Positions 21,349 to 58,029 of a stretch of 64,000 nt of DNA are shown here, one piece after another; positions within the stretch are counted from its first letter, which is position 1, and each line of letters starts with the position of its first letter. The notes below the pieces were generated by a model, which had not been told where the DNA came from, searched no databases, and saw only the letters and a list, made by a program, of their open reading frames with translations. The position numbers and the translations under genes were made by a program. Location of the stretch: contig NW_024704742.1 of assembly GCF_018977255.1 (NCBI RefSeq), forward strand, positions 60,142,001 through 60,206,000. Direction: 5' to 3'. This DNA comes from Callorhinchus milii (taxonomy: Eukaryota).

Positions 21349-21660
21349 GGTGTGCTGTAGCTCAATGTTTAGAGTACTCACCTCGCAAGCAAGTGACCTG
21401 GGTTCAATTCCCAGCGAAATCTTGGGCAAGTTTCCTTATTCCACACGCCTGATAATAATCCCTCAAGAAAAAAAACAATAATAAAATTGGTCACTTCAAT
21501 CCACGACTATTTATGGGACACTGCTGTATGCAATTGGCTGCCAAGTTTCGCCCACAAATATAGAGTCAATTCGCTTTACAGTATATTTAGTGAAGCACTT
21601 TGAGATGTCTAGAAGATGCAAAAAGTGCTATATTAAATGCAAGGATTATTATCATTATTA
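21349..21660 (+). mobile_element. tRNA-derived SINE, older subfamily, full length
   Basis: CTGTAGCTCAATGTTTAGAG...GGGTTCAATTCCC...GGGCAAGTTTCCTTATTCCACACGCC...GAGATGTCTAGAAGATG tail. Confidence 0.92.
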
Positions 21661-22535: not shown

Positions 22536-25118
22536 AGCTTTTGACTGAATTTTTAATCAATGTGATGATTGTTACCAGTGACTATATGAATTGTGATATC
22601 ACATTACCACCTTCCCCCCCTCCCCCAAGTAGTAGCACTATTTCTAATGCTATACATTAACAAGTATTTTAGTCACGAGAAACATCAGTTATTGAGAAGA
22701 CTGGTTTAAACCACACTATATAACAGTATAACACCCGCTTCCCCTTTGCTGTGGCCGAGCAGGCAGGCCACCTGCCTTGGGAATTCTATCTACACTTCTT
22801 GTTGATGGAATATTGCTTGCATCTTCAATGACAGCTTCTTGCTCCAAATTTTCTCCAGTGATAGTTTCCAGCTAGAACCTCCTGACCTATACCTGCTGCT
22901 CCTCGCTGTCCAAGTTTGAAACTGCCTGTTTCCCCAAAGACCCAGCTTAACTAACAGCTGATAACACAGGCTTTCTGGATGAATTCCAGTTTCCCATGCA
23001 GCTCATCCATTCTAACCCAGATGGATTTTCCAAGGATCACCTATATGCCACAAACTATATATTCCTGGCAAATGTCTCAGGCTTCAAATTGTTATAATAC
23101 CGCAAACACAATAGTCCTGCTTATAGCCAACATTGGCCATCGGAATAAACTGGTGCAGTGATGAAACATACTTGGTCAGTATTGATTATTACCTGCACCA
23201 CTTTTTGCCAGGGAAAAATATTAGAATCTATAATAAAGAAAATTATTTGTTTTAAAAATGAAGACAATTTTTCTTTCTTGATTTTCAGAATAATAAAATT
23301 ACTCCAGATCTCAAAGTTCTTGTCATTGATCTTCATTTGTTCATTGCATCATATAGTGCAGCAAGTGTGAAGAAAAAATTGGATAACCCAGGAATTAAAT
23401 TAATTAGATAAATTTCCAAACTCCTGTGCCTATCTCCAATCAAAATGAATCTGTCTGGGTAGACCTTCAGAACATCTAAGAGTTGAGGGAATGAAACATC
23501 TTGTAAGCAATTCTGAAGATTTTGACAACAAAAGGAAGCCAAAAAACATCCTGTTAATATTCTTTGTGACTGATTTGGGGACTGACAAATCCACAGAACA
23601 ATGCTGCACATGAATGTTACTTTGGATATTTAATGATTGTGCTATTTGATTCATTTTCAAGCAAGACAAACTAATGTCTTTTCATCTGAAGAAAAGCAGA
23701 GTGAGAGCAGTATTCAGCAGAATGGTACAGTTAACAAATGACACTATGACCGAATGGCATTTTACATGTGCGATGAACACAGTATAATGATGTGAAAAAA
23801 CAACTATATTGCTGGAACAGTTAATGAATGCCGCTATTATGGCTCATCATTGTCAGATTGATAACAGCTTTCCACATTACAAACAACACATCCACATCAT
23901 AAAAATAGAACTTGGCATTTGATATAGCGCCTTGTTACACCGTCGAGACGTCTCAAAGTGCTTGACTGCGTATACCATAGAGTGATGTGACTGTATGTAT
24001 TTTGCAAACACAACAGCCAATTTACACATTCGAGGGATTTTAAGCAGGCATAAAATGAATGATCGTTTTATCTAGAGGATTGTTGAACAGGGCATTGAGG
24101 GGAAAATCTCTTTTTTCAAAAACTGTCATAGGGTTTAAAACAGTCATGGCACTTTACAGTAAACCCTATGAAGTACTCCAAGGCATCCTCTCCATGTGAA
24201 AGGCACTATATCAAATGAAGGATTATTTTTATTATTATATATTAGTTGACTAATCATTCTAGTTTATTACATATACATATAAATCAATTAACTGGATGGA
24301 CACTTTAGAGTTACTTACTTTGGGTATTTCATACTTTCAGGTTCCTAAGTACTTCTCAGATGTTGTTCCATTAACTACATGATTTGCTATAATGATTATT
24401 TATCCTTTTTATAGCCTACCTCTTTGACCATGTCTATGGTAACCACCCCTCTCCCATTCCTCCTAGTTTGGGCATCCAACCCCGCCACTGTGAAGCACTC
24501 TGAGACATTATCCTACGTGAAGGTCACTATATAAATGCCAGTTGTTGTCTCTTTATTTTGCCAATACATTTAATACTATAGATTCTTTCAACTACCTGAT
24601 CTGCTGCAAATACATTTCTAAAGTTGGATATCATTTAGTAGCATGAGCAATCACCAACAGCTTCAATCAATAAAAATGGACCACTGATGTGCAATAGCAC
24701 AAAGTGTAAATTATGCTTTCTAGTCAATTCTACGTAAAACCCCCGAACAGCCTTCACTGAATTCTGCACAACAAATTCCCTTTTCAGTGCTACACAGCTG
24801 GGTCTACAACATAATGCACTGCAATGCTACTTAACAGCTGTTAAATTGTGTTACTTAGTCATTCTAATAGACAAATGCCCATTAGCTAGTTTTTTTTAAT
24901 GTCAAGCTTAATGCTACCTTACTTTTAAGTAACACTAAGTGGATTACACGCCCAGAACGTAGATTAAGTAAAAAAATAAATTCTTGAGTAAAACTTGCTT
25001 AACATATACAATAAATGCAGCGTTTTCATGCCAGAGTTCTAGGTGAGGATCCTGTCCGGGAGAGAGATCACAGACTGCAGAAACAGAGCAGTGCGTTTTA
25101 TGGCTGGCATCTGTGTAG

Positions 25119-26118
25119 TCATTTTGGATTGATACAGAAAGCTGAGCAGCAACTGCACCAGCTGTTGTGTCTTGGCATTAATAAGGTGTTCTCATCCAAA
25201 ATGTGGTATCTGTTCCAGGCATCGCTTACAGGGACACTGAGTGCAAATAGTGACTTCTGACAGAAACTAAAGGCACATCATTGCCAAGTCTCCGGTAACT
25301 TTCTAGTCATCAATTTAGACTTCAAAGCAATCTAGCTTATCATATTGATTTGAAAGATCTACATTCACAAAGGGGACTCAGGGGCTCAAATGTTAATGCT
25401 CTCACATGATTTCACGGTCCAGTTAAACAATTGTCTCAGGGCTCAAAATACAAGCATTAATGTTGTGATAATTAGTGTTGTGATAATAATAATTATATCA
25501 TTGCTAAATAATGTCAATAAGGCAGGTTAATAACATCCATAAATACAGACTGGTTACATGTGAACCCCATTCCTCCCCTGACTTCCATCACCACTGAAAG
25601 TTTAACCTAGCCCATAGCACAGATCAGAACATTGGCATGGATTAGTGGATCTTCGCATGTTTGTGTTAAACCAAGCCCACATCTGCTATCGAGCAATTCA
25701 ATGGATAGTCGAAAAACATGAGACATTGACTATCTTGGCTTAAGTTAAGAAAACAGCAGAGCTGGAGAGACAAGTAAAGGATTAGAACAAGAAACCTGAA
25801 GCACAGAGAGTAGATGGAGAAGAAGAAGAACGCCCAATTGTTGGAGGAAGTTCGCAAACAAGATGGCAACTTGACGGACAACTCTCAGGTCTGCATGAGA
25901 GAACTTGGCTTTGCTTTTTGCTTTTGACGGTTTATGTCAGGGGGCATTCAATGACTTAAAAGTATCCTCTTTTCCTATTAGGTGAAGTTGCTTTAGAAAA
26001 TAACTGTTCTAATCCACGGAAATCAGGACCAGGTGCCTACCCATTCCTTTTATATATTCTGTGAAGCACTTTGAAATGTCTTAAAGATGTGATAAGGAGC
26101 TATATCACATGCAAAGGT

Positions 26119-26149
<31 letters not shown>

Positions 26150-29100
26150 ATATTTAGATAGCCTTTGAAGACCTTAAGCCTTGGGAATCTTGAAACATTA
26201 AGGGAATCTCACTTCTGGCAACAACTGTTAACCATTGAACCATAAATATTTGCAGCATGTAAGACAGCTATTTGGCCTATTTTGCATCTGTTGGCTCCCT
26301 CAGGACAATCCTTTCAGCTCCATTTACCCGTCTTTACCCCATATCCCTGAGGCTGATGGTTTTTCAGGTAAAAATAATATAAAATCAATGGAATCTCATG
26401 GCAGAAGGTAAGCTTCACTCGACAACATTTTGAAGCCGGTGGTTGTGAAGTACCAGACTATTTGTAAAGCTTGTAAAGCACTCTGGCTCCTACCCTGTGT
26501 GAAGGGCACTATATAAATGCAAGTTGCTGATGTTGTTGTTGATATCCTGTTTCTTCTCTAACCTCACCACAGGAACAAACTATTATTTAAAAAAGAATGG
26601 GCACCTCCTACAATGCAGCATTTCCCCAGTACTGTATTTGAAGTTTTAGCTTAGACAGTGAGTTAAAGTCTCAATGTTGGATTGGGACCCTCAACTTTCT
26701 GACTCGGAGGTGAGAGTTCTATCAACTGAGCCAGGCCGACACCTTTAAACATGTTAGTGCTTGATCGTGATTCATGTGATTGGGTTGCAAGATTCTGATG
26801 AAATGTTTTGTAGCTGACTTGATTGGAATAACATTTGAGCAAATGTGGGAGGTAGAAATTCTGTACTATATGGCACCTGTGTCAATTAAGCTGTACCTTG
26901 GAAAGTAAATTAGACTGATATTGGCAGCATGAGTACAAGGGGAAGGGATGGATGAAACAAATGAGAAGCACTTATGTACAGTTCATCAGCAAAGCATATT
27001 GGTAATGCAGACTAGGAAAATCTTGCATTCATCCAGTTATGCTTAGAATCAACAGAATACCAATGGTGGCAGGATCAACTTTGGCTCCAATCTGCTCCCT
27101 GTTCTCACAGGTGGAATTCCTTTCAATTGAGTGTCCAGATAGAGCGTCCACCTGTCCTCCTTCATTCTCTGTTCTGGAGGATCTTATTTTGAGCATGAAA
27201 CAGGCATTAGTTACAGTGTTAGCTAGCAGGTATTCAGTGTATCTTAATGCATCCAAAATTGTCTACTTAGCAAAGTATGTTCACATTTTAGGTGATGTTA
27301 AATATAAGGCCTAAAAAATTCTCATGATTTTAGCCTTAAGCTAAATGTCATAAATTTTATGGTGATACAGAATTTGAAACATTCTGAGAATTTAAAATTT
27401 TTAAGACCCTCATCTTAAGGCTAAAAAGATGTTTGAATTACTTGAATAGGAGTTGATACACCACAGCACTACAACAACAACAAGATTCCATTTATAAAGC
27501 GCCTTTCACGTCGGGAGGACGTCCCAAGGCGCTGTACAGTTGGGTCAGGACCCGAGCAGGGGGGAAATGGTCAGGGGGAGGGAAAGGAGGGAGCGAGGAG
27601 GGGTAGAGAGTCGAGAAATATATGTTTGAGATAAACCTAGATGAAAAGTGTTGGGTGCAATTCCCGATTTATGCAGCAACTCCATGCATGAGAACACTCC
27701 AATTGATCATGTCAACAAAGCTTTGACCTTGGTATTCATCCCATGCTGGCTATGTAAATAATGTGGTGGTCACATAAGTCAACTGGTTCTCTGTTCAGTA
27801 CTTTCAACTCAAGAGAATCAGTCTGTTGTACATTTAAGAATGTGTGACAGAGAAACAGCTGTGTGTGGCTATTAGTAATTATGTATTGGAGTAGAAGGTT
27901 ATCAGGGTCTGTTTTTATGTGTGTCTTAGCAAATGCTATGATGGCACAGAAATTCATCACTCAGGTGAAAGATGCGTTTGAAAATAGGTCTTCGAGTTTT
28001 GCCAAGGTTAACTGACAATTGGGTATGTTATGGTAACCTTATTCTTGCAGTCTTTTGTAATGTGTGGATAATGTGTATATATAACTATATAATATTATTT
28101 AAGGGAAATGGGGAGGCCTGTCCCTTTAAATGGGTTGTGTAAGATTCCAAGTTGCTGAAGCTGCTTGCAGCACAGAGTTAGCAACCAGCCTACACCAGTT
28201 TGCAGCGAAGTATAGATCCAGGGCTGCTTGATTGACAGTCAGGTAACAAGCGCTAACAAGCAGCTCGCAGAGTAAAATAACACACGGGCGCTAGCGCGGG
28301 AAAGATAAACCCTCGCATTGGCATAATATGGTGGGTGGAGACACATGCATATATAAGGCAATTCTCAGCGGACCTCGTGGTCGCTAACTAATGGGTGGGA
28401 TCCGGTATGTATTGACGTGTACAGGACTACTATATGGTCAGGGTTGGTTTCATGTTCCTTTCCAATGTAGTATTGTGCTGCCATGTTATAGTTATGTGTG
28501 ATTGTTATATTTGATCCCATTGTTGTGTTCCTTATATGCAAGGTAGCCTAGGGTTGCTAGGTTTTAGTAAAGAGCTGTTGTTTCTACCGAATGTATCCTC
28601 GAGTCTCTAGTATTCCAGACAAGAAAAGGAGTAAGCACTTTGGAGGGTAGTTATCAACGTCAGAGATCTACTAGTGCGAGCGGACTACGATTAGATATTC
28701 CAGTTACCGGGCATTGGGGTTAACTGGGAATATCTGTCTGTGTGTGACTATGACTTGGTTGAGTCACCTTTGAAATACGGACTCACATCGACAGGGTTTG
28801 AAGAGACTCAGGCCACTGAGTAAGAAAGCATTAATAAAATTTGCACGTACATCATGGAGTGAGAACCGCCGCAGGTGGAAAAGGAATTACCAGCAGATGG
28901 TGAATAGTGATTAAACTTATTTTCTTTCCTTGAGAAACACTTCTGTTTAATGGATTTCGAAGGTAATTGGTTCCAATTGGTTCATACTGACAGAAATCTC
29001 CTCACTACACTCTGAATATATGGCAACTTTAACACCGTCTGTGGCAGGGTTCTGGTGTGAGATATGATGGTCAGCAATGGATACTTGTTGCATAGAAAAA

Positions 29101-31307: not shown

Positions 31308-31580
31308 CTTCCCCTAGCATGGAAACTTACAAAAATAACATTCACAAATTCAGGGTAACATAATAAAATTTGTAGATGACACCATGCTAGGGGGACTGTG
31401 GAATCAAAGAAAGTTATTGAGATCATACAAAGAGATCTTAACAGGGTATGTACCAGGGCTGATATGAATGCTGACAATTACAAGAAAGTTAAAAAGGCAC
31501 ATGAACACCACAGATGGAATAGCATTGCAAGGGAGGAGTTGAAAGAGACTTGAAAGAGACTTTGGAGTGTTGATTAACTG

Positions 31581-32978
31581 TTGCTCCTCATGTTTCTTGC
31601 CCCACACATCACTGACATCATAAACCTGTCCCTCTCCTCTGGCTCTGTCCCCATTCCATTAAAAACTGCCATCATCACGCCCACCCTGAAAAAACCCTCC
31701 CTTGATGCGTCGCAGCTATCAAGCTACCGGCCCATCTCCAACCTCCCCTTTCTCTCCAAGGTCTTGGAAAGAGTTGTCGCCTTCCAACTGCGCTCTTTCC
31801 TCTCCACCCATTCTCTTTTTGAACCCCTTCAGTCAGGTTTCCGTGCTGCTCATAGCACAGAAACTGCCCTGGTCAAGGTCACCAATGATATCCTGACTAT
31901 CTGTGACCAGGGCTCCCTCTGTCTCCTCGTCCTCCTCGACCTATCGGCAGCAATCGATACGGTCGACCACGCTATCCTACTCCACCGCTTGTCCTCCCAC
32001 CTCAACCTTCAAGGCACTGTCCTTGAATGGTTTAGCTCTTACCTTTCCCACCGTCTTCACTTCGTCTCAACGAATGGCTTCTCCTCCACCCCCCGTACTG
32101 TCTCATGTGGTGTCCCTCAGGGCTCTGTCCTCGGTCCCCTCCTCTTCACCCTCTATATGCTCCCCCTCGGTGACATCATCCGCAAACATGGGGTTAACTT
32201 CCACATGTATGCGGATGACACCCAACTCTACCTTTCCTCCTCTACTCTCAACTCCACGACCACCGATGTCCTGACAGCCTGCCTGTCCGACATCGAGTCC
32301 TGGACGAGAGACAACTTTCTTCAGCTCAACGTGCGAAAAACCGAGGCCCTCCTGATTGGCTCACGTCAGCGCCTCCGCACCTCAGGCGCTGACACCATCA
32401 GCATCCAAGGCTGCACTCTCCACCTCTCAAAGCCAGTCAGGAACCTCGGCGTTTTGTTCGACCCTGAGCTGTCCTTTCTCCCTCACATCCGCACCACAAC
32501 TGGCACCGCCTTCCATCACCTCCGGAATATCGCCAGATTACGGCACTACCTCACCCCTCACGCTGCTGAAACCCTGGTTCACGCCTTTGTCACCTCAAGG
32601 CTGGACTATGGGAACTCTCTCCTCGCCGGCCTTCCCGCCACCTCCCTCCACAAGCTGCAGGTCATTCAGAACTCTGCAGCTCGTGTACTGTCCCGCACCA
32701 GGCTTCGGGACCACATCACTCCCACCCTCGCTCGCCTCCACTGGCTCCCCATCCCCCAGAGGATTGATTTCAAGATCCTCATCCTCACCTACAAGGCCAT
32801 TCACGGCCTTGCTCCCTCCTACCTCTCCAACCTACTATCCCCCTACCTACCTGCCCGTACCCTCCGTTCCTCTGGCTCCGGTCTGCTCCACGTCCCCCGC
32901 CCCAACCGCCCTACTATCGGTGGTCGGGCCTTCAGCCTCTCAGCCCCGAGGCTCTGGAACTCCATCCAAGGATTCTGA
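31581..32978 (+). CDS. L2 ORF2 reverse-transcriptase domain fragment (465-aa open frame, no endonuclease)
   Basis: [68 protein letters not shown]. Confidence 0.9.
31590..32967 (+). mobile_element. Young L2 LINE segment, truncated at both ends
   Basis: Very close to the copy at 42285-43283; lacks the ORF2 C-terminus and 3' UTR. Confidence 0.96.
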
Positions 32979-35473: not shown

Positions 35474-35727
35474 ATAATAGCAATAATAATCCTTGCATTT
35501 GATATAGCGCCTTATCACATCTTCAAGAAGTCTAAAGCGCTTCACAGAATATAGTGTGAAGTGAATTCACTGTGTATTTTGTGGATGAAACGCGGCAGTC
35601 AATTGTGCACAGCATTGTCCCATTGTGGAATAAGGAAACTTACCCAACGTTTCATCCTGCCTGGAATAGAACCCAGGTCTCTCATTTGCGAGACAAGCGC
35701 TCTAACCACTGAGCTACAGGATTCCAT
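35474..35727 (-). mobile_element. tRNA-derived SINE with internal deletion
   Basis: Head CTCTAACCACTGAGCTACAGGATTCCA; the segment between GTCCCA and TGTGGAATAAGG is missing relative to 45639-45961. Confidence 0.9.
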
Positions 35728-40739: not shown

Positions 40740-43700
40740 ACTAAGGCAGTTTTGGACTGCATGTGTGTAAATGCACGGAGCGTGACAAATAAGGATGGTG
40801 AGCTGCAGGCGAAAGTTGCCACATGGGATTATGATGGGCATAATGTCAATGGGCAATAACGGAGACCTGGCTCAAACAAGGGCAGGAATGGGAGCTTAAC
40901 ATTCCTGACTGCAATGTATTCGGGAGTGATATGGCAGGATAAAGAGGAGAGAGGGTGGCAGTATGGATCAAAGATACTGTTACAGCCCTGGAAAGGGATG
41001 ATGTGCTAGAGGGTTAAAGGACAGAATCTATTTGGTTAGAGTTGAGGAGCAGAAGAGGAGCTGTTATGCTTCTGGGTGTATATTATACACCACTAAATAG
41101 TGGGAAGGAGATAGAGGAGCAAATCTGCAAGCAGATTTCAGAAAAAATAAAAAAACAATAGAGTAGTGATAATGGTGGACTTCAATTATCTTAACAGACT
41201 GGGAAGAAAACAGTGTAAAGGGCACAGAGGGGGAAGAATTCCAGAAATCTGTACAGGAAAACTTTCTTGATCATTACGTTTCCAGCCCAACGAGGAAGGA
41301 AGCAGTGCTAGATCTAGTCCTGGGGAATAAAGTAGGGCCAGTGGAGCAGGTTTCAGTGAGAGAGCATCTGTATAACAATGATCACAATATCATTAGGTTT
41401 AGAGCAGTTATGGAAAGGGACAAGGAGCAATCAAAGATATTCAACTGGGAGAGGACTAATTTCAGTGAGCTGAAAGGTATTTTGCCCAGGTTGATTGAAA
41501 CCAAGTATGATGTGTAAAACTGTAAACGAGCAATGGGAGTCATTCAAGGAGGAGATAGTTAGGGTACAGACCACACACATTCCCATGAGGGGAAAAGGTA
41601 GGGCATTCAATGCTAGAGCTCTCTAGATGACTGAGGAAACTGGGATTAAAATGAGACACAAAAAAGAGGCTTATGATAAATGTCAGGTCAAAATCCACTA
41701 GAGAATCAAGCAGAATACAGAAAGTGCAGATGAGAACTGAAAAAGGAAATAAAAGGGGCAAAGAGAGTGTATGAGAAACGATTAGCAGGTAACATAAAAG
41801 GGACCACTGAATTCTTCTAAAAATATATAAAGAGTGAAAGAAGGCTGGGGCTAATTAGGGACCAAAAAGGAAAACTCAGGCATGCCTGAGATACTAAATG
41901 CGTGCTTTGCATCTATCTTCACCAAAGAGGATGCTGCCATTGATAATCCTGGAGGCGAAGAACAACCCCAGGCTTCTGTTTTCTACCACATCCCGACTCC
42001 TCCGTCCCCCCCGCCACCCCGCGCAGGTCATCTCCTCCAACCTTCACTGCAAGGAGATGCTGGATTTCCTTGAATCCAAAATCAAGGGAATCCGCTCCGC
42101 AGTCACTTCCCCTCCAACTTCCACCCACCCCCACCCCTTCCCTCCCACACTCCGACTCCTACCCATCCTCCCCTACACACCTTCGAACCCGTTTCCCCAC
42201 CCTGTGTCACCAAACTCATCCTGTCCCTGAAACCCACCACCTGCTCCCTTGACCCCATCCCCCTTATCTTTCAGCTCCACCTCCTTGCCCCACTTATCAC
42301 AGACATCATCAATCTGTCCCTCTCCTCTGGCTCTGTTCCCACTCCCGTAAAAACTGCCATCATCACTCCCACTTTGAAAAAACCCTCCCTTGATGCGTCG
42401 CAGCTATCAAGCTACCGGCCCATCTCCAACCTTCCCTTCCTGTCCAAGGTCCTTGAAAGGGTTGTCGCCTCCCAGCTGCGCTCTTTCCTCTCCACCCATT
42501 CATTATTCGAACCCCTTCAGTCGGGTTTCCGTGCTTCCCATAGCACAGAAACTGCCCTGGTCAAGGTCACCAATGACATCTTGACCATCTGCGACCAAGG
42601 CTCCCTCTGCCTCCTCGTCCTCCTCGACCTATCGGCAGCATTCGATACGGTCGACCACGCTATCCTCCTCCACCGCTTATCCTCCCACCTCAACCTTAAA
42701 GGCCCTGTCCTTGAGTGGTTTACGTCGTACCTCTCCCACCATCTTCATTTTGTTTCCACAAACGGCTTTTCCTCCAGCACCCGCCCCGCACTGTCTCGTG
42801 CGGTGTCCCTCAGGGCTCTGTCCTCGGTTCACTCACCTCCGAAACATCGCCAGACTACGGCACTACCTCACCCCTCACGCTGCTGAAACTCTGGTCCACG
42901 CCATTATCACCTCAAGGCTGAACTATGGGAACTCTCTCCTCGCCGGCCTTCCCGGCACCTCCCTCCACAAGCTGCAGGTCATTCAGAACTCTGCAGCTCG
43001 TGTACTGTCCCGCACCAGGCTTCGCGACCACATCACTCCCACCCTCGCTCGCCTCCACTGGCTCCCCATCCCCCAGAGGATCGAATTCAAGATCCTCATC
43101 CTCACCTACAAGGCCATTCACGGCCTTGCTCCCTCCTACCTCTCTGACCTATTATCTCCCTACCTACCTGCCCGTACCCTCCGTTCCTCTGGCTCCGGTC
43201 TGCTCCAAATCCCCCGCCCCAACTGCCCTACCATCGTTGGCCGGGCCTTCAGCCTCTCAGCCCCTAGGCTCTGGAACTCTATCCCCCAGTGCCTTCGCCG
43301 CTTCCTCCCTTTCCTCCTTCAAGGCCGGTCTCAAGACCTTTCTCTTTGACCGTGCCTTCAGCTCCCCTCTCGACTCTCTACCCCCTCCTCGTTCTCTCCC
43401 TTCCCTCCCCTCACCCTGACCATTTGCCCCTGCTCGGGTCCTGACCCAACTGTCCAGCGCCTTGGGACATCCTCCCGACATGAAAGGTGCTCTATAAATG
43501 GCATCTTGTTGTTGTTGTTACAGTAAAGGAGGGGTAAGCACAGAAATTGGATAGTATAAAAATAGAGAGGAGGTACTTTAAAGGTTACCAGTGCTCAAAG
43601 TAGAAAAGTTACCTGGTCCAGATGGGATGCATCCTAGGTTGCTGAGGGAAGTTAGGGTGGAATTAACGGAGGCTCTGACTACAATCTTTCAATCCTACTT

Positions 43701-54569: not shown

Positions 54570-56405
54570 AATGGAAGAGTTTAAAGAGTGATAAGACAGG
54601 CTAAAAGATTAGCGGGTAACATAAAGGGGAATCCTAAAATATTTTATAAGCACATAAAGGAAAAAAGGTTAGTTAAAAGATAGGGTGGGGCCAATCAAAG
54701 ACAATGACGGCAATCTTGTTGTGGAGGCAGAGGGCACGGCTGATGTATTGAACGAGTACTTTGCAATGGAAAAGGATGCCCCAAATGCCGCAGTATTGGA
54801 TGAGAGGAAAGAGGAAATAAATCAGATTACTATAGACAGAGAGGAAGTTCTGAAAAGATTGACTGGGCTCAAAATTGATAGGTCATCTGGACCAGATGGG
54901 TTTCACCCAAGGTTGCTGTGGGAGATACGGTTTTAAATAGTGGAGGCTTTGGCCATTACATTTCAATCTTCATTGGTCACAGGCGTGGTGCCAAGAGACT
55001 GGAGAGTGGCTAATGTTACCCCCTTCTACAAAAAGGAGCAGAAAGACAAACCCGGAAATTACAGGCCAGTCAGCCTAACTTCGGTGATAGGAAAACTGCT
55101 TGAGACCATAATCCCGGACAGAATAAATCTCTACTTAGAGGAACATGAGGTAAATAGAGACAGCCAACATGGATTTGTTAAAGGCAAATCTTGCCTAACA
55201 AATCTAATAGAATTTTTTGAAGAGGTGACTGCGAGGGTTGATGAAGCAAATGTGGTGGACGTTATTTACATGGATTTCAAAAAGGCCCACCGTATTAAGG
55301 GGACAGTGGCAGTTTGGATTAAGAACTGGCTGAGTGACAGAAAGCAGAGGGTGGTGGTTAATGGGTGTTTCTCGAAATGGAAGAAGGTGTGCAACGGTTT
55401 CCCCCAGGGATCGGTATTGGGACAACTGCTCTTTCTAATATATATTAATGATCTGGACTTGGGCATAGAGAACACTATTTCCAAATTTGCAGATGATACA
55501 AAGTTAGGTAGGGTAGTAAATGGCGAGGAGGACTGTAACCAACTGCAAGCAGACATACACAGAATGGTAGAATGGGCTGACATATGGCAGATGGATTTCA
55601 ATGTGGATAAGTGTGAGGTGATACACTTAGGTAGGAAAAATGATAGGAGGCAATATAGACATGGTAGCTCAATCTTAAGGGGGGTGAACGTACAGAGAGA
55701 TCTGTGTTCAAGTAAGCAAATCATTAAAGGTAGCGGGGCAGGTAGATAAGGGGGTAAAAAGGCATTTGTTGTACTGAGTTTATTAGTAGTGACATAGAGT
55801 ATAAGAGTAGGGAGGTTATGGTTAATCTATACAAAACACTGGTTAGGCCTCAGCTGGAGTACTGCGTCCAGTTCTGGGCACCTTACTTCAGGAAGGATAT
55901 TAAGGCACTGGAAAGGGTGCAGAGGAGATTCACGAGAATGATACCAGGAATGGGGAACCTTAGCTATGAGGACAGGCTGGAGAAGTTAGCACTTTTCCCA
56001 TTAGAGCAGAGAAGGTTACGCGGGGACCTGATAGAGGTCTTCAAGATCATGAAAGGTTTCGACAGGCTAGATAAGGAGAACTGTTTCCGCTGGTAGGTGT
56101 GTCTGTGACCCACAGACTGTGACACAGTCTTAAGATATCTACCAAAAGAAGCAGAGGGGAGGTTAGAAGAATTTTTTCACTCAGCGAGTTGTTCGAATTT
56201 GGAATGATCTGCCTGAAAGTGTAGTGAAGTCCGATTCGATAACAGCTTTTAAGAGAGAACTGGATAGGTATCTGGGGAAGATGGGTTTGCAGGGTTATGG
56301 GGAGAAAGCGGGTTAGTGAAAGTGACTTGCTCTGTCAAAGAGCCGGCACAGACTCGTTGGGACGAATGCTCTCCTTCTGTGTCGTAACATTCTATGAATC
56401 TATGA
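54570..56405 (+). mobile_element. 5'-truncated CR1 LINE (RT to 3' UTR)
   Basis: ORFs 54685, 54940 and 55818: GPDGFHPRLL, YRPVSLTSV, QHGFVKGKSCLTNLIEFF, GFPQGSVLG, KFADDTKLG, RPQLEYCVQFWAP; TTCTATGAATCTATGA tail. Confidence 0.97.
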
Positions 56406-56439
56406 AAAAATGAAAAAAAGAGTTGAAAAATAATAGCTG

Positions 56440-57595: not shown

Positions 57596-57736
57596 TAAGA
57601 ACATAGGAAGATAAGAATTAGGAGCAGGAGTAGGCCATTTGGTCCCTCGAGCCTGCCCCGCCATTCGATAAGATCATGGCTGATCTTCAGACTAACTCTA
57701 ATTACCTGCCCTATCCCCATATCCACTAATCCCTGT
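57596..57736 (-). mobile_element. Short CR1 3' end inserted in a SINE tail (SINE pieces 57550-57595 and 57737-57813)
   Basis: TAAGAACATAGGAAGATAAGAATTAGGAGCAGGAGTAGGCCATT is a reversed CR1 3' terminus; the SINE motif CACTTT.CAGTA/TATTTTGCGAAGTGCTTTG is split around it. Confidence 0.85.
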
Positions 57737-58029
57737 ATATTTTGCGAAGTGCTTTGAAACATGTCAACGACGTGATAAGGTGCTATATCAAATGCAAGGA
57801 TGATTATTATTATCAAGTAGTTTGAAGTGAATCAATTTCCCTGGAGGATTGGTGGCCAGGACACTTTGTGTGTATTGTCTAGGAATTTTTAATGTCCATC
57901 TGTACAGAAGAAACAGTAGCGGGTTTAATGTCTCATCTGCAGCATGAAATCTGTTCATGGAAAGTGTAATACTGAACGTAAGAAGATAGAAAAAGGAGCA
58001 GTCTTTTCCCAAGGTTTGTTCACTTAAGA

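Follow-up and report, generated by a model that had tools for sequence, protein, structure and literature searches.

A decayed ERC2 RNA copy fused to a SINE tail in Callorhinchus milii and its possible origin by template switching

How an internal piece of a host transcript could be copied into a chromosome by LINEs that depend on a tail of their own is the question raised by a short ERC-like segment in the genome of Callorhinchus milii. The segment lies in a 64-kb stretch of DNA (C1:60142001-60206000 of a searched genome of 991.5 Mb), which was analyzed as a whole and is hereafter called the window; positions given without a contig name are counted from its first letter. An earlier note on the window had described the segment as a tailless, 162-bp internal mRNA fragment (25742-25903), flanked by two copies of CTTGGCTT as target-site duplications (TSDs). 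Local blastn and pairwise alignment against the parent loci place the ERC2 homology at 25742-26042, which retains the 5' limit of that insert but moves its 3' limit, giving 301 bp instead of 162 bp.

A DNA search of the whole genome with 25700-25950 returned three places, the window itself and a pair of C12 sites 7 kb from each other, one matching with E 7e-28 and 81% identity and the other with E 3e-18 and 92% identity. In addition, a genome search with the Pfam Cast domain (PF10174) revealed two multi-exon genes, each with 12 exon matches above the cut-off, one on C12 (C12:19596916-19813703, - strand) and a paralogue on C5 (C5:47365341-47682544, - strand). The large second coding exon of the C12 gene was 100% identical to Callorhinchus milii proteins named ERC protein 2, and the exon of the C5 paralogue that corresponds to exon A (see below) reads differently. 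Judged by these sequence matches, the parent of the copy is ERC2 (CAST) on C12, which narrows down the ERC-family identity proposed in the earlier note, and the copy itself is located on C1. Moreover, tblastn with the 1106-aa ERC2 protein against the 64 kb yielded a match only at 25747-25888 (E 1.4e-11), the next-best match having an E value of 0.73; by the DNA and protein searches, the ERC similarity far exceeds chance. No other ERC exon was found in the window by this search, and a collinear paralogous locus, which the earlier note had named as an alternative, is thus not present there.

For the description of the copy, three consecutive exons of the parent were named A-1, A (136 nt), and B (132 nt). 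At 25742-25769 on the + strand, exon A-1 contributes its final 28 nt (KKIAELER in the parent), 25 of them identical to C12:19673033-19673060, and 25742, where the homology reaches its limit, is the 5' end of the ERC2 copy. They are followed on the same strand by nt 1-127 of exon A at 25770-25888, aligned to C12:19653332-19653460 with 81.4% identity over 129 columns (16 mismatches and 8 gap columns). In the parent, exon A-1 ends in ...ctggagag followed by gtaagc, exon A is preceded by the acceptor ...ttcccag, and the two are separated by an intron of 19,574 nt (C12:19673033 to 19653458); in the window they are contiguous at 25769/25770, exactly where a splice junction had been predicted. The annotated protein P0004 reads KKIAELERQVKDQNKK across the same junction. 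Because the 19.6-kb intron is precisely absent, the ERC2 fragment is, on the evidence of this junction, an RNA-derived copy, as had been suspected before its parent was identified.

The next exon boundaries were fixed by transcript-like contigs of four sequencing runs (from two studies), all of which contained the joint between exon A and exon B and left out the 6,959 nt between them, bounded by GT..AG on the strand of the gene. Exon B, which encodes DTMQQKESRIKELEEALRESVQITAEREVVLAQEEAARSSTEKQ, is a cassette exon, included in isoform P0004 and skipped in P0001 (both predicted isoforms). The copy lacks exon B (132 nt) together with the final 9 nt of exon A, and continues instead with nt 1-154 of the intron downstream of exon B at 25889-26042 (+ strand), in which 139 of 157 positions are identical to C12:19646078-19646234, a count that includes the CAG at 25886-25888. 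This intron-derived part opens at the intron's own GT, and the CAG in front of it is compatible with exon A and with the end of exon B alike. The second exon junction that had been supposed near 25895 is therefore replaced by an internal join at 25888/25889, at which nt 127 of exon A meets the downstream intron at its first base. Within the intron-derived part, a tandem array of TTTGCTT (2.3 copies) was observed at 25910-25925, with a similar but imperfect version in the parent.

At its other end, the ERC2 piece stops at 26042 and a SINE tail begins at 26043-26053, representing a direct fusion of copies of different transcripts in which the ERC2 sense strand and the SINE piece share the same (+) orientation. 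The 10 nt at 26043-26052 (+) form a junction zone that is either SINE-derived with indels or filler, given that, among the nine sampled SINE copies, only L007 can be aligned from 26043, and this with gaps, the alignments of the others begin at 26052-26054, and two full-length copies match the window only from 26053. Next come a 5'-truncated SINE 3' tail module (26053-26117, +), assignable to a tRNA-derived SINE of ~375 nt or to a LINE with the same tail, and a (TTA)n microsatellite tail (26118-26154, +; period 3 and 11.7 copies in Tandem Repeats Finder), which is likely the 3' end of the composite insertion. The module was 88-93% identical to all nine sampled copies, which end in (ATT)n. Since all nine reach further 5' than the window copy, the window SINE was truncated at the fusion, with only its last ~80 nt and the (TTA)n left. 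As regards the family, L010 and L013 were homologous over about 380 nt, and ARAGORN, applied to four of the nine copies (L006, L008, L010, and L013), detected a tRNA-Ala-like head in L013 only, indicating a tRNA-derived SINE.

The parent locus shows what lay beyond the fusion point. There, the position equivalent to 26042 is followed by 33 nt of non-repeat sequence, absent from the window copy, and then by the 5'-truncated repeat tail of another family. This continuation identifies 26042 as a true breakpoint, and the alternative that the break simply marks a repeat edge in the parent was rejected, because the repeat there begins 33 nt later. On the upstream side, no SINE body was detected in 25000-25741, and 24550-25741 is essentially unique and without a C12 match, so that an insertion into an older, intact SINE would need an extra deletion. 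Furthermore, the insert contains no poly(A), and from 26042 onward the sequence has the SINE tail with its (TTA)n in place of an A-run. The lack of poly(A) reported earlier is thus real, but the copy is not tailless in its context, and, as its 3' end abuts the 3' end of a SINE, a special tail-independent priming need not be invoked.

Other repeats of the window were also surveyed. The 70-nt tail module, which appears common to several repeat families, has 17 further copies in the 64 kb at E<=1e-5, on both strands and with 74-87% identity (e.g., 35485-35553, 1755-1822, 21582-21650, and 57736-57805). A young, very abundant LINE with a reverse transcriptase ORF (RVT_1, E 9e-21) is located at 54937-56410 (+), and its 3' ~700 nt were 92-95% identical at the 39 other matches listed of 19,808 candidates. 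Genomic copies of this LINE end at ~56,410 in ATTCTATG-like repeats, which resemble the CR1 octamer tail, unlike the tail of the SINE. The LINE was considered as the tail partner, ending in the module at 57736-57805, and rejected because of this earlier end and different tail. Two more reverse transcriptase-bearing ORFs were identified at 31578-32975 (+) and 42074-42883 (+), one of them open over 466 aa with an RVT_1 E value of 2e-34 and the other with E 6e-16, in a Pfam scan that took in 18 of the 49 window ORFs of at least 100 aa. Additionally, blastn of 23000-29000 against the parent loci brought up one further candidate ERC2 piece, 27468-27616, which matches the intron downstream of exon B with 93% identity at a point 4.4 kb from its start; it was rejected as an independent copy of a young ~150-nt repeat, which is 94-97% identical at all 39 other matches listed (2453 candidates).

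The copy is dead and decayed, without coding function. Its frames read VKKTAELERQVKD*NKK and MEKKKNAQLLEEVRKQDGNLTDNSQ, and the two TAG stops (25783 and 25811) and the frameshift at ~25792 noted earlier were confirmed by the parent, which has CAG at both stop positions and 8 extra nt at the frameshift, an 8-nt deletion in the copy. With these two in-frame TAGs and the deletion, no open frame with a Cast domain was found, and the window fragment, being short and broken, is absent among the 31 matches listed in the PF10174 genome search. The copy diverges from its parent by ~12% with indels, ruling out an assembly mix-up with the parent. In the intron piece, 18 of 157 positions differ, corresponding to about 6% per lineage if both sides drift. 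For the SINE piece, 4 mismatches in 68 positions were counted against the consensus of the nine copies (26053-26120, running 3 nt into the tail), and the other SINE copies have 2-5 differences from the same consensus. By these counts, the ERC2 and SINE pieces look similar in age.

Considering this anatomy, it is somewhat probable that the composite arose by a single retro-insertion, which was primed on SINE-tail RNA and in which the reverse transcriptase switched template onto ERC2 RNA. At a nick near 26154, the enzyme of a tail-recognizing LINE would have begun with the tail RNA of a SINE (or LINE) and copied about 80-100 nt of it, before changing to ERC2 RNA at nt 154 of the intron after cassette exon B. 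Copying would then have proceeded back to the first base of that intron, resumed in exon A from nt 127, and passed over the A-1/A boundary, which had already been spliced, to end after 28 nt of exon A-1; this end of the cDNA would have been attached to the chromosome at 25741/25742. We infer that all parts arrived in one event and that the fusion was made by template switching rather than by RNA ligation.

The internal join could have been generated in several ways. It may reflect a second jump that took the enzyme off the 5' end of an excised intron and onto ERC2 mRNA, an intramolecular jump on a transcript retaining the intron, or a later 141-bp deletion between two CAGs, comprising 9 nt of exon A and the 132 nt of exon B. 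The position of the break, at the first base of the intron, would be accounted for by an end-to-end jump off an excised intron. The fuller version of this idea, a tripartite fossil of SINE tail, excised ERC2 intron, and spliced mRNA with the reverse transcriptase running off the intron end, is put forward tentatively and is rather improbable. No joint of exon A nt 127 to intron nt 1 was present among the joints listed for the run contigs, and the bins of intron nt 1-154 were swamped by repeat depth. Against a single event stand the two or three discontinuities that it requires and the lack of a TSD. For ZfL2-2, TSDs, blunt joins, and target truncations were all found according to PMC2666801, and insertions of this tail-recognizing L2 type often have no TSD, so the missing TSD is not decisive.

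Whether a TSD exists at all bears on the 162-bp insert between TSDs. The pair is real, with CTTGGCTT at 25734-25741 (+), in the unique 5' flank and exactly at the 5' limit of homology, and again at 25904-25911, leaving 162 bp between. However, the second copy is preceded by 15 nt of intron-derived sequence, an identical 8-mer occupies the equivalent position of the parent intron, and the alignment with the parent extends without interruption for another 131 nt. The second copy therefore arrived with the insert and is not half of a TSD, nor is the first one, which lies outside the insert. An insert of 162 bp would have to end with intron nt 1-15 at a target beginning by chance with intron nt 16-154; the parental 8-mer and the continuing homology refute this model. 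At 876 of 63,683 window positions (1.4%), the 8-mer immediately 5' of the position is found again in the 301 nt that follow, and three other 8-mer pairs occur in 25600-26200; the CTTGGCTT pair, explained by none of the models considered, is treated as chance. No TSD was detected around 25742-26154 either, the best flank-to-flank local match being reached by 57% of 300 shuffles. The intron sequence in the copy could point to a DNA-level origin, either as a segmental ERC2 copy with later deletions or as the remnant of an ERC paralogue. That origin is highly unlikely in view of the 19,574-nt intron removed to the base at 25769/25770, the lack of any other ERC exon in the window, and the location on C1 rather than C12, and an ancient paralogue is excluded by the 88.5% identity of the intron piece.

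RNA-templated break repair, already suggested in the earlier note, is a live rival with a lesser but appreciable probability. It supposes two events, in which reverse-transcribed ERC2 RNA patched a double-strand break beside or inside an older SINE whose 5' part was resected. The lack of TSD and poly(A) and a transcribed donor with a spliced junction agree with such a patch, these being the very features given in PMC5110952 for class 2 templated sequence insertions, which draw on cDNA and intronic donors; with 17 further tail-module copies in the 64 kb, landing in one would not be rare. Nevertheless, a patch presupposes that at least about 290 nt of the SINE body were deleted and that the inserted sequence ended precisely where the remaining SINE begins; upstream, no SINE body was detected, and the shared orientation and similar decay would be coincidence. 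As regards the microhomology or filler expected of NHEJ-type junctions, the internal join has a 3-nt overlap (CAG), 26042/26043 one of 0-1 nt, and 25741/25742 no visible overlap, a pattern that favors neither model. The fusion may also have existed already in RNA, through ligation of ERC2 and SINE RNAs or through an ancestral ERC2 allele with a SINE at intron nt 155, the tail of which recruited the reverse transcriptase to the pre-mRNA. The resulting DNA would look identical. Ligation before retrotransposition is documented for U6/LINE-1 chimeras (RtcB; PMC6789731), and the 2025 preprint 10.1101/2025.02.02.635956 gives it as an alternative to template switching. Since the present parent continues beyond intron nt 154 with 33 nt of non-repeat sequence and then a repeat tail of a different family, and no sign of a ligase-competent end was seen, fusion at the RNA level is considered unlikely.

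If the single template-switching insertion is correct, tail-requiring LINEs could still copy host RNA by beginning reverse transcription on the tail of a SINE or LINE and moving to another template afterwards, which would resolve the previous puzzle of tail-dependent LINEs copying mRNA. The locus also preserves ERC2 RNA in a half-processed state, one intron having been removed and another being present, from a germline or early-embryo nucleus. Should the tripartite reading hold, the tail-dependent LINE machinery of a cartilaginous fish would sample nuclear splicing products, and piggy-backing on SINE tails would be suggested as the route to the rare gene retrocopies of L1-poor vertebrates. A single decayed locus carries no functional weight; its value would lie in a genome-wide count of such fusions in genomes without L1-type relaxed retroposition.

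The comparison with known systems begins with the machinery. Tail-dependent ('stringent') and poly(A)-dependent ('relaxed') LINEs are contrasted in PMC3747384. Classical processed and short mRNA pseudogenes, as characterized in PMC2831318, originate from the 3' end of the mRNA and bear both a poly(A) tract and TSDs. The ERC2 copy shares with them the intron loss at an exon junction, the unlinked location, and the decay, whereas it is an internal fragment with intron sequence and without poly(A). The class 2 templated sequence insertions of human, described in PMC5110952 as having neither TSD nor poly(A) and as including spliced cDNA, are similar in being short RNA-derived inserts from a distant gene. 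Those insertions are, in that account, stand-alone break patches, in contrast to the ERC2 copy, which is joined directly to a retroposon tail of like orientation.

Closer parallels come from LINEs that recognize tails. For ZfL2-2 of the L2 clade, PMC2666801 attributes the extra 5' nucleotides of ~40% of insertions to template jumps and cites end-to-end jumping by the R2 reverse transcriptase. A tail-recognizing LINE, 5' extras ascribed to template jumps, and varied target-site outcomes are thus features in common, although the extra part here is 301 nt long and traceable to a named gene, whereas the lengths and sources of the ZfL2-2 extras are given as 'unpublished data' in that paper. Template switching from SINE RNA by a CR1 reverse transcriptase was also proposed, in PMC5729268, for the origin of PittSINE.

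The nearest counterparts are chimeric retrogenes and retropseudogenes. Bipartite and tripartite chimeras generated by template jumps of LINE reverse transcriptases are reported in PMC2104539 for mammals (L1) and for a fungal LINE in Magnaporthe, and mRNA/LINE-1 chimeras are described in 10.1101/2025.02.02.635956. As in these, copies of unrelated transcripts are fused directly and in one orientation, a cellular RNA being followed on its 3' side by a retroposon end that is truncated at the 5' side and keeps its own tail, and more than one discontinuity is possible. The present locus differs in having no detectable TSD, a SINE tail with (TTA)n rather than L1 with poly(A), a cellular part that mixes a spliced junction with an intron of the same gene, and a cartilaginous fish as host. 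With its decayed ERC2 RNA copy fused to a SINE tail, it represents a further example of the known class of chimeric retrocopies.
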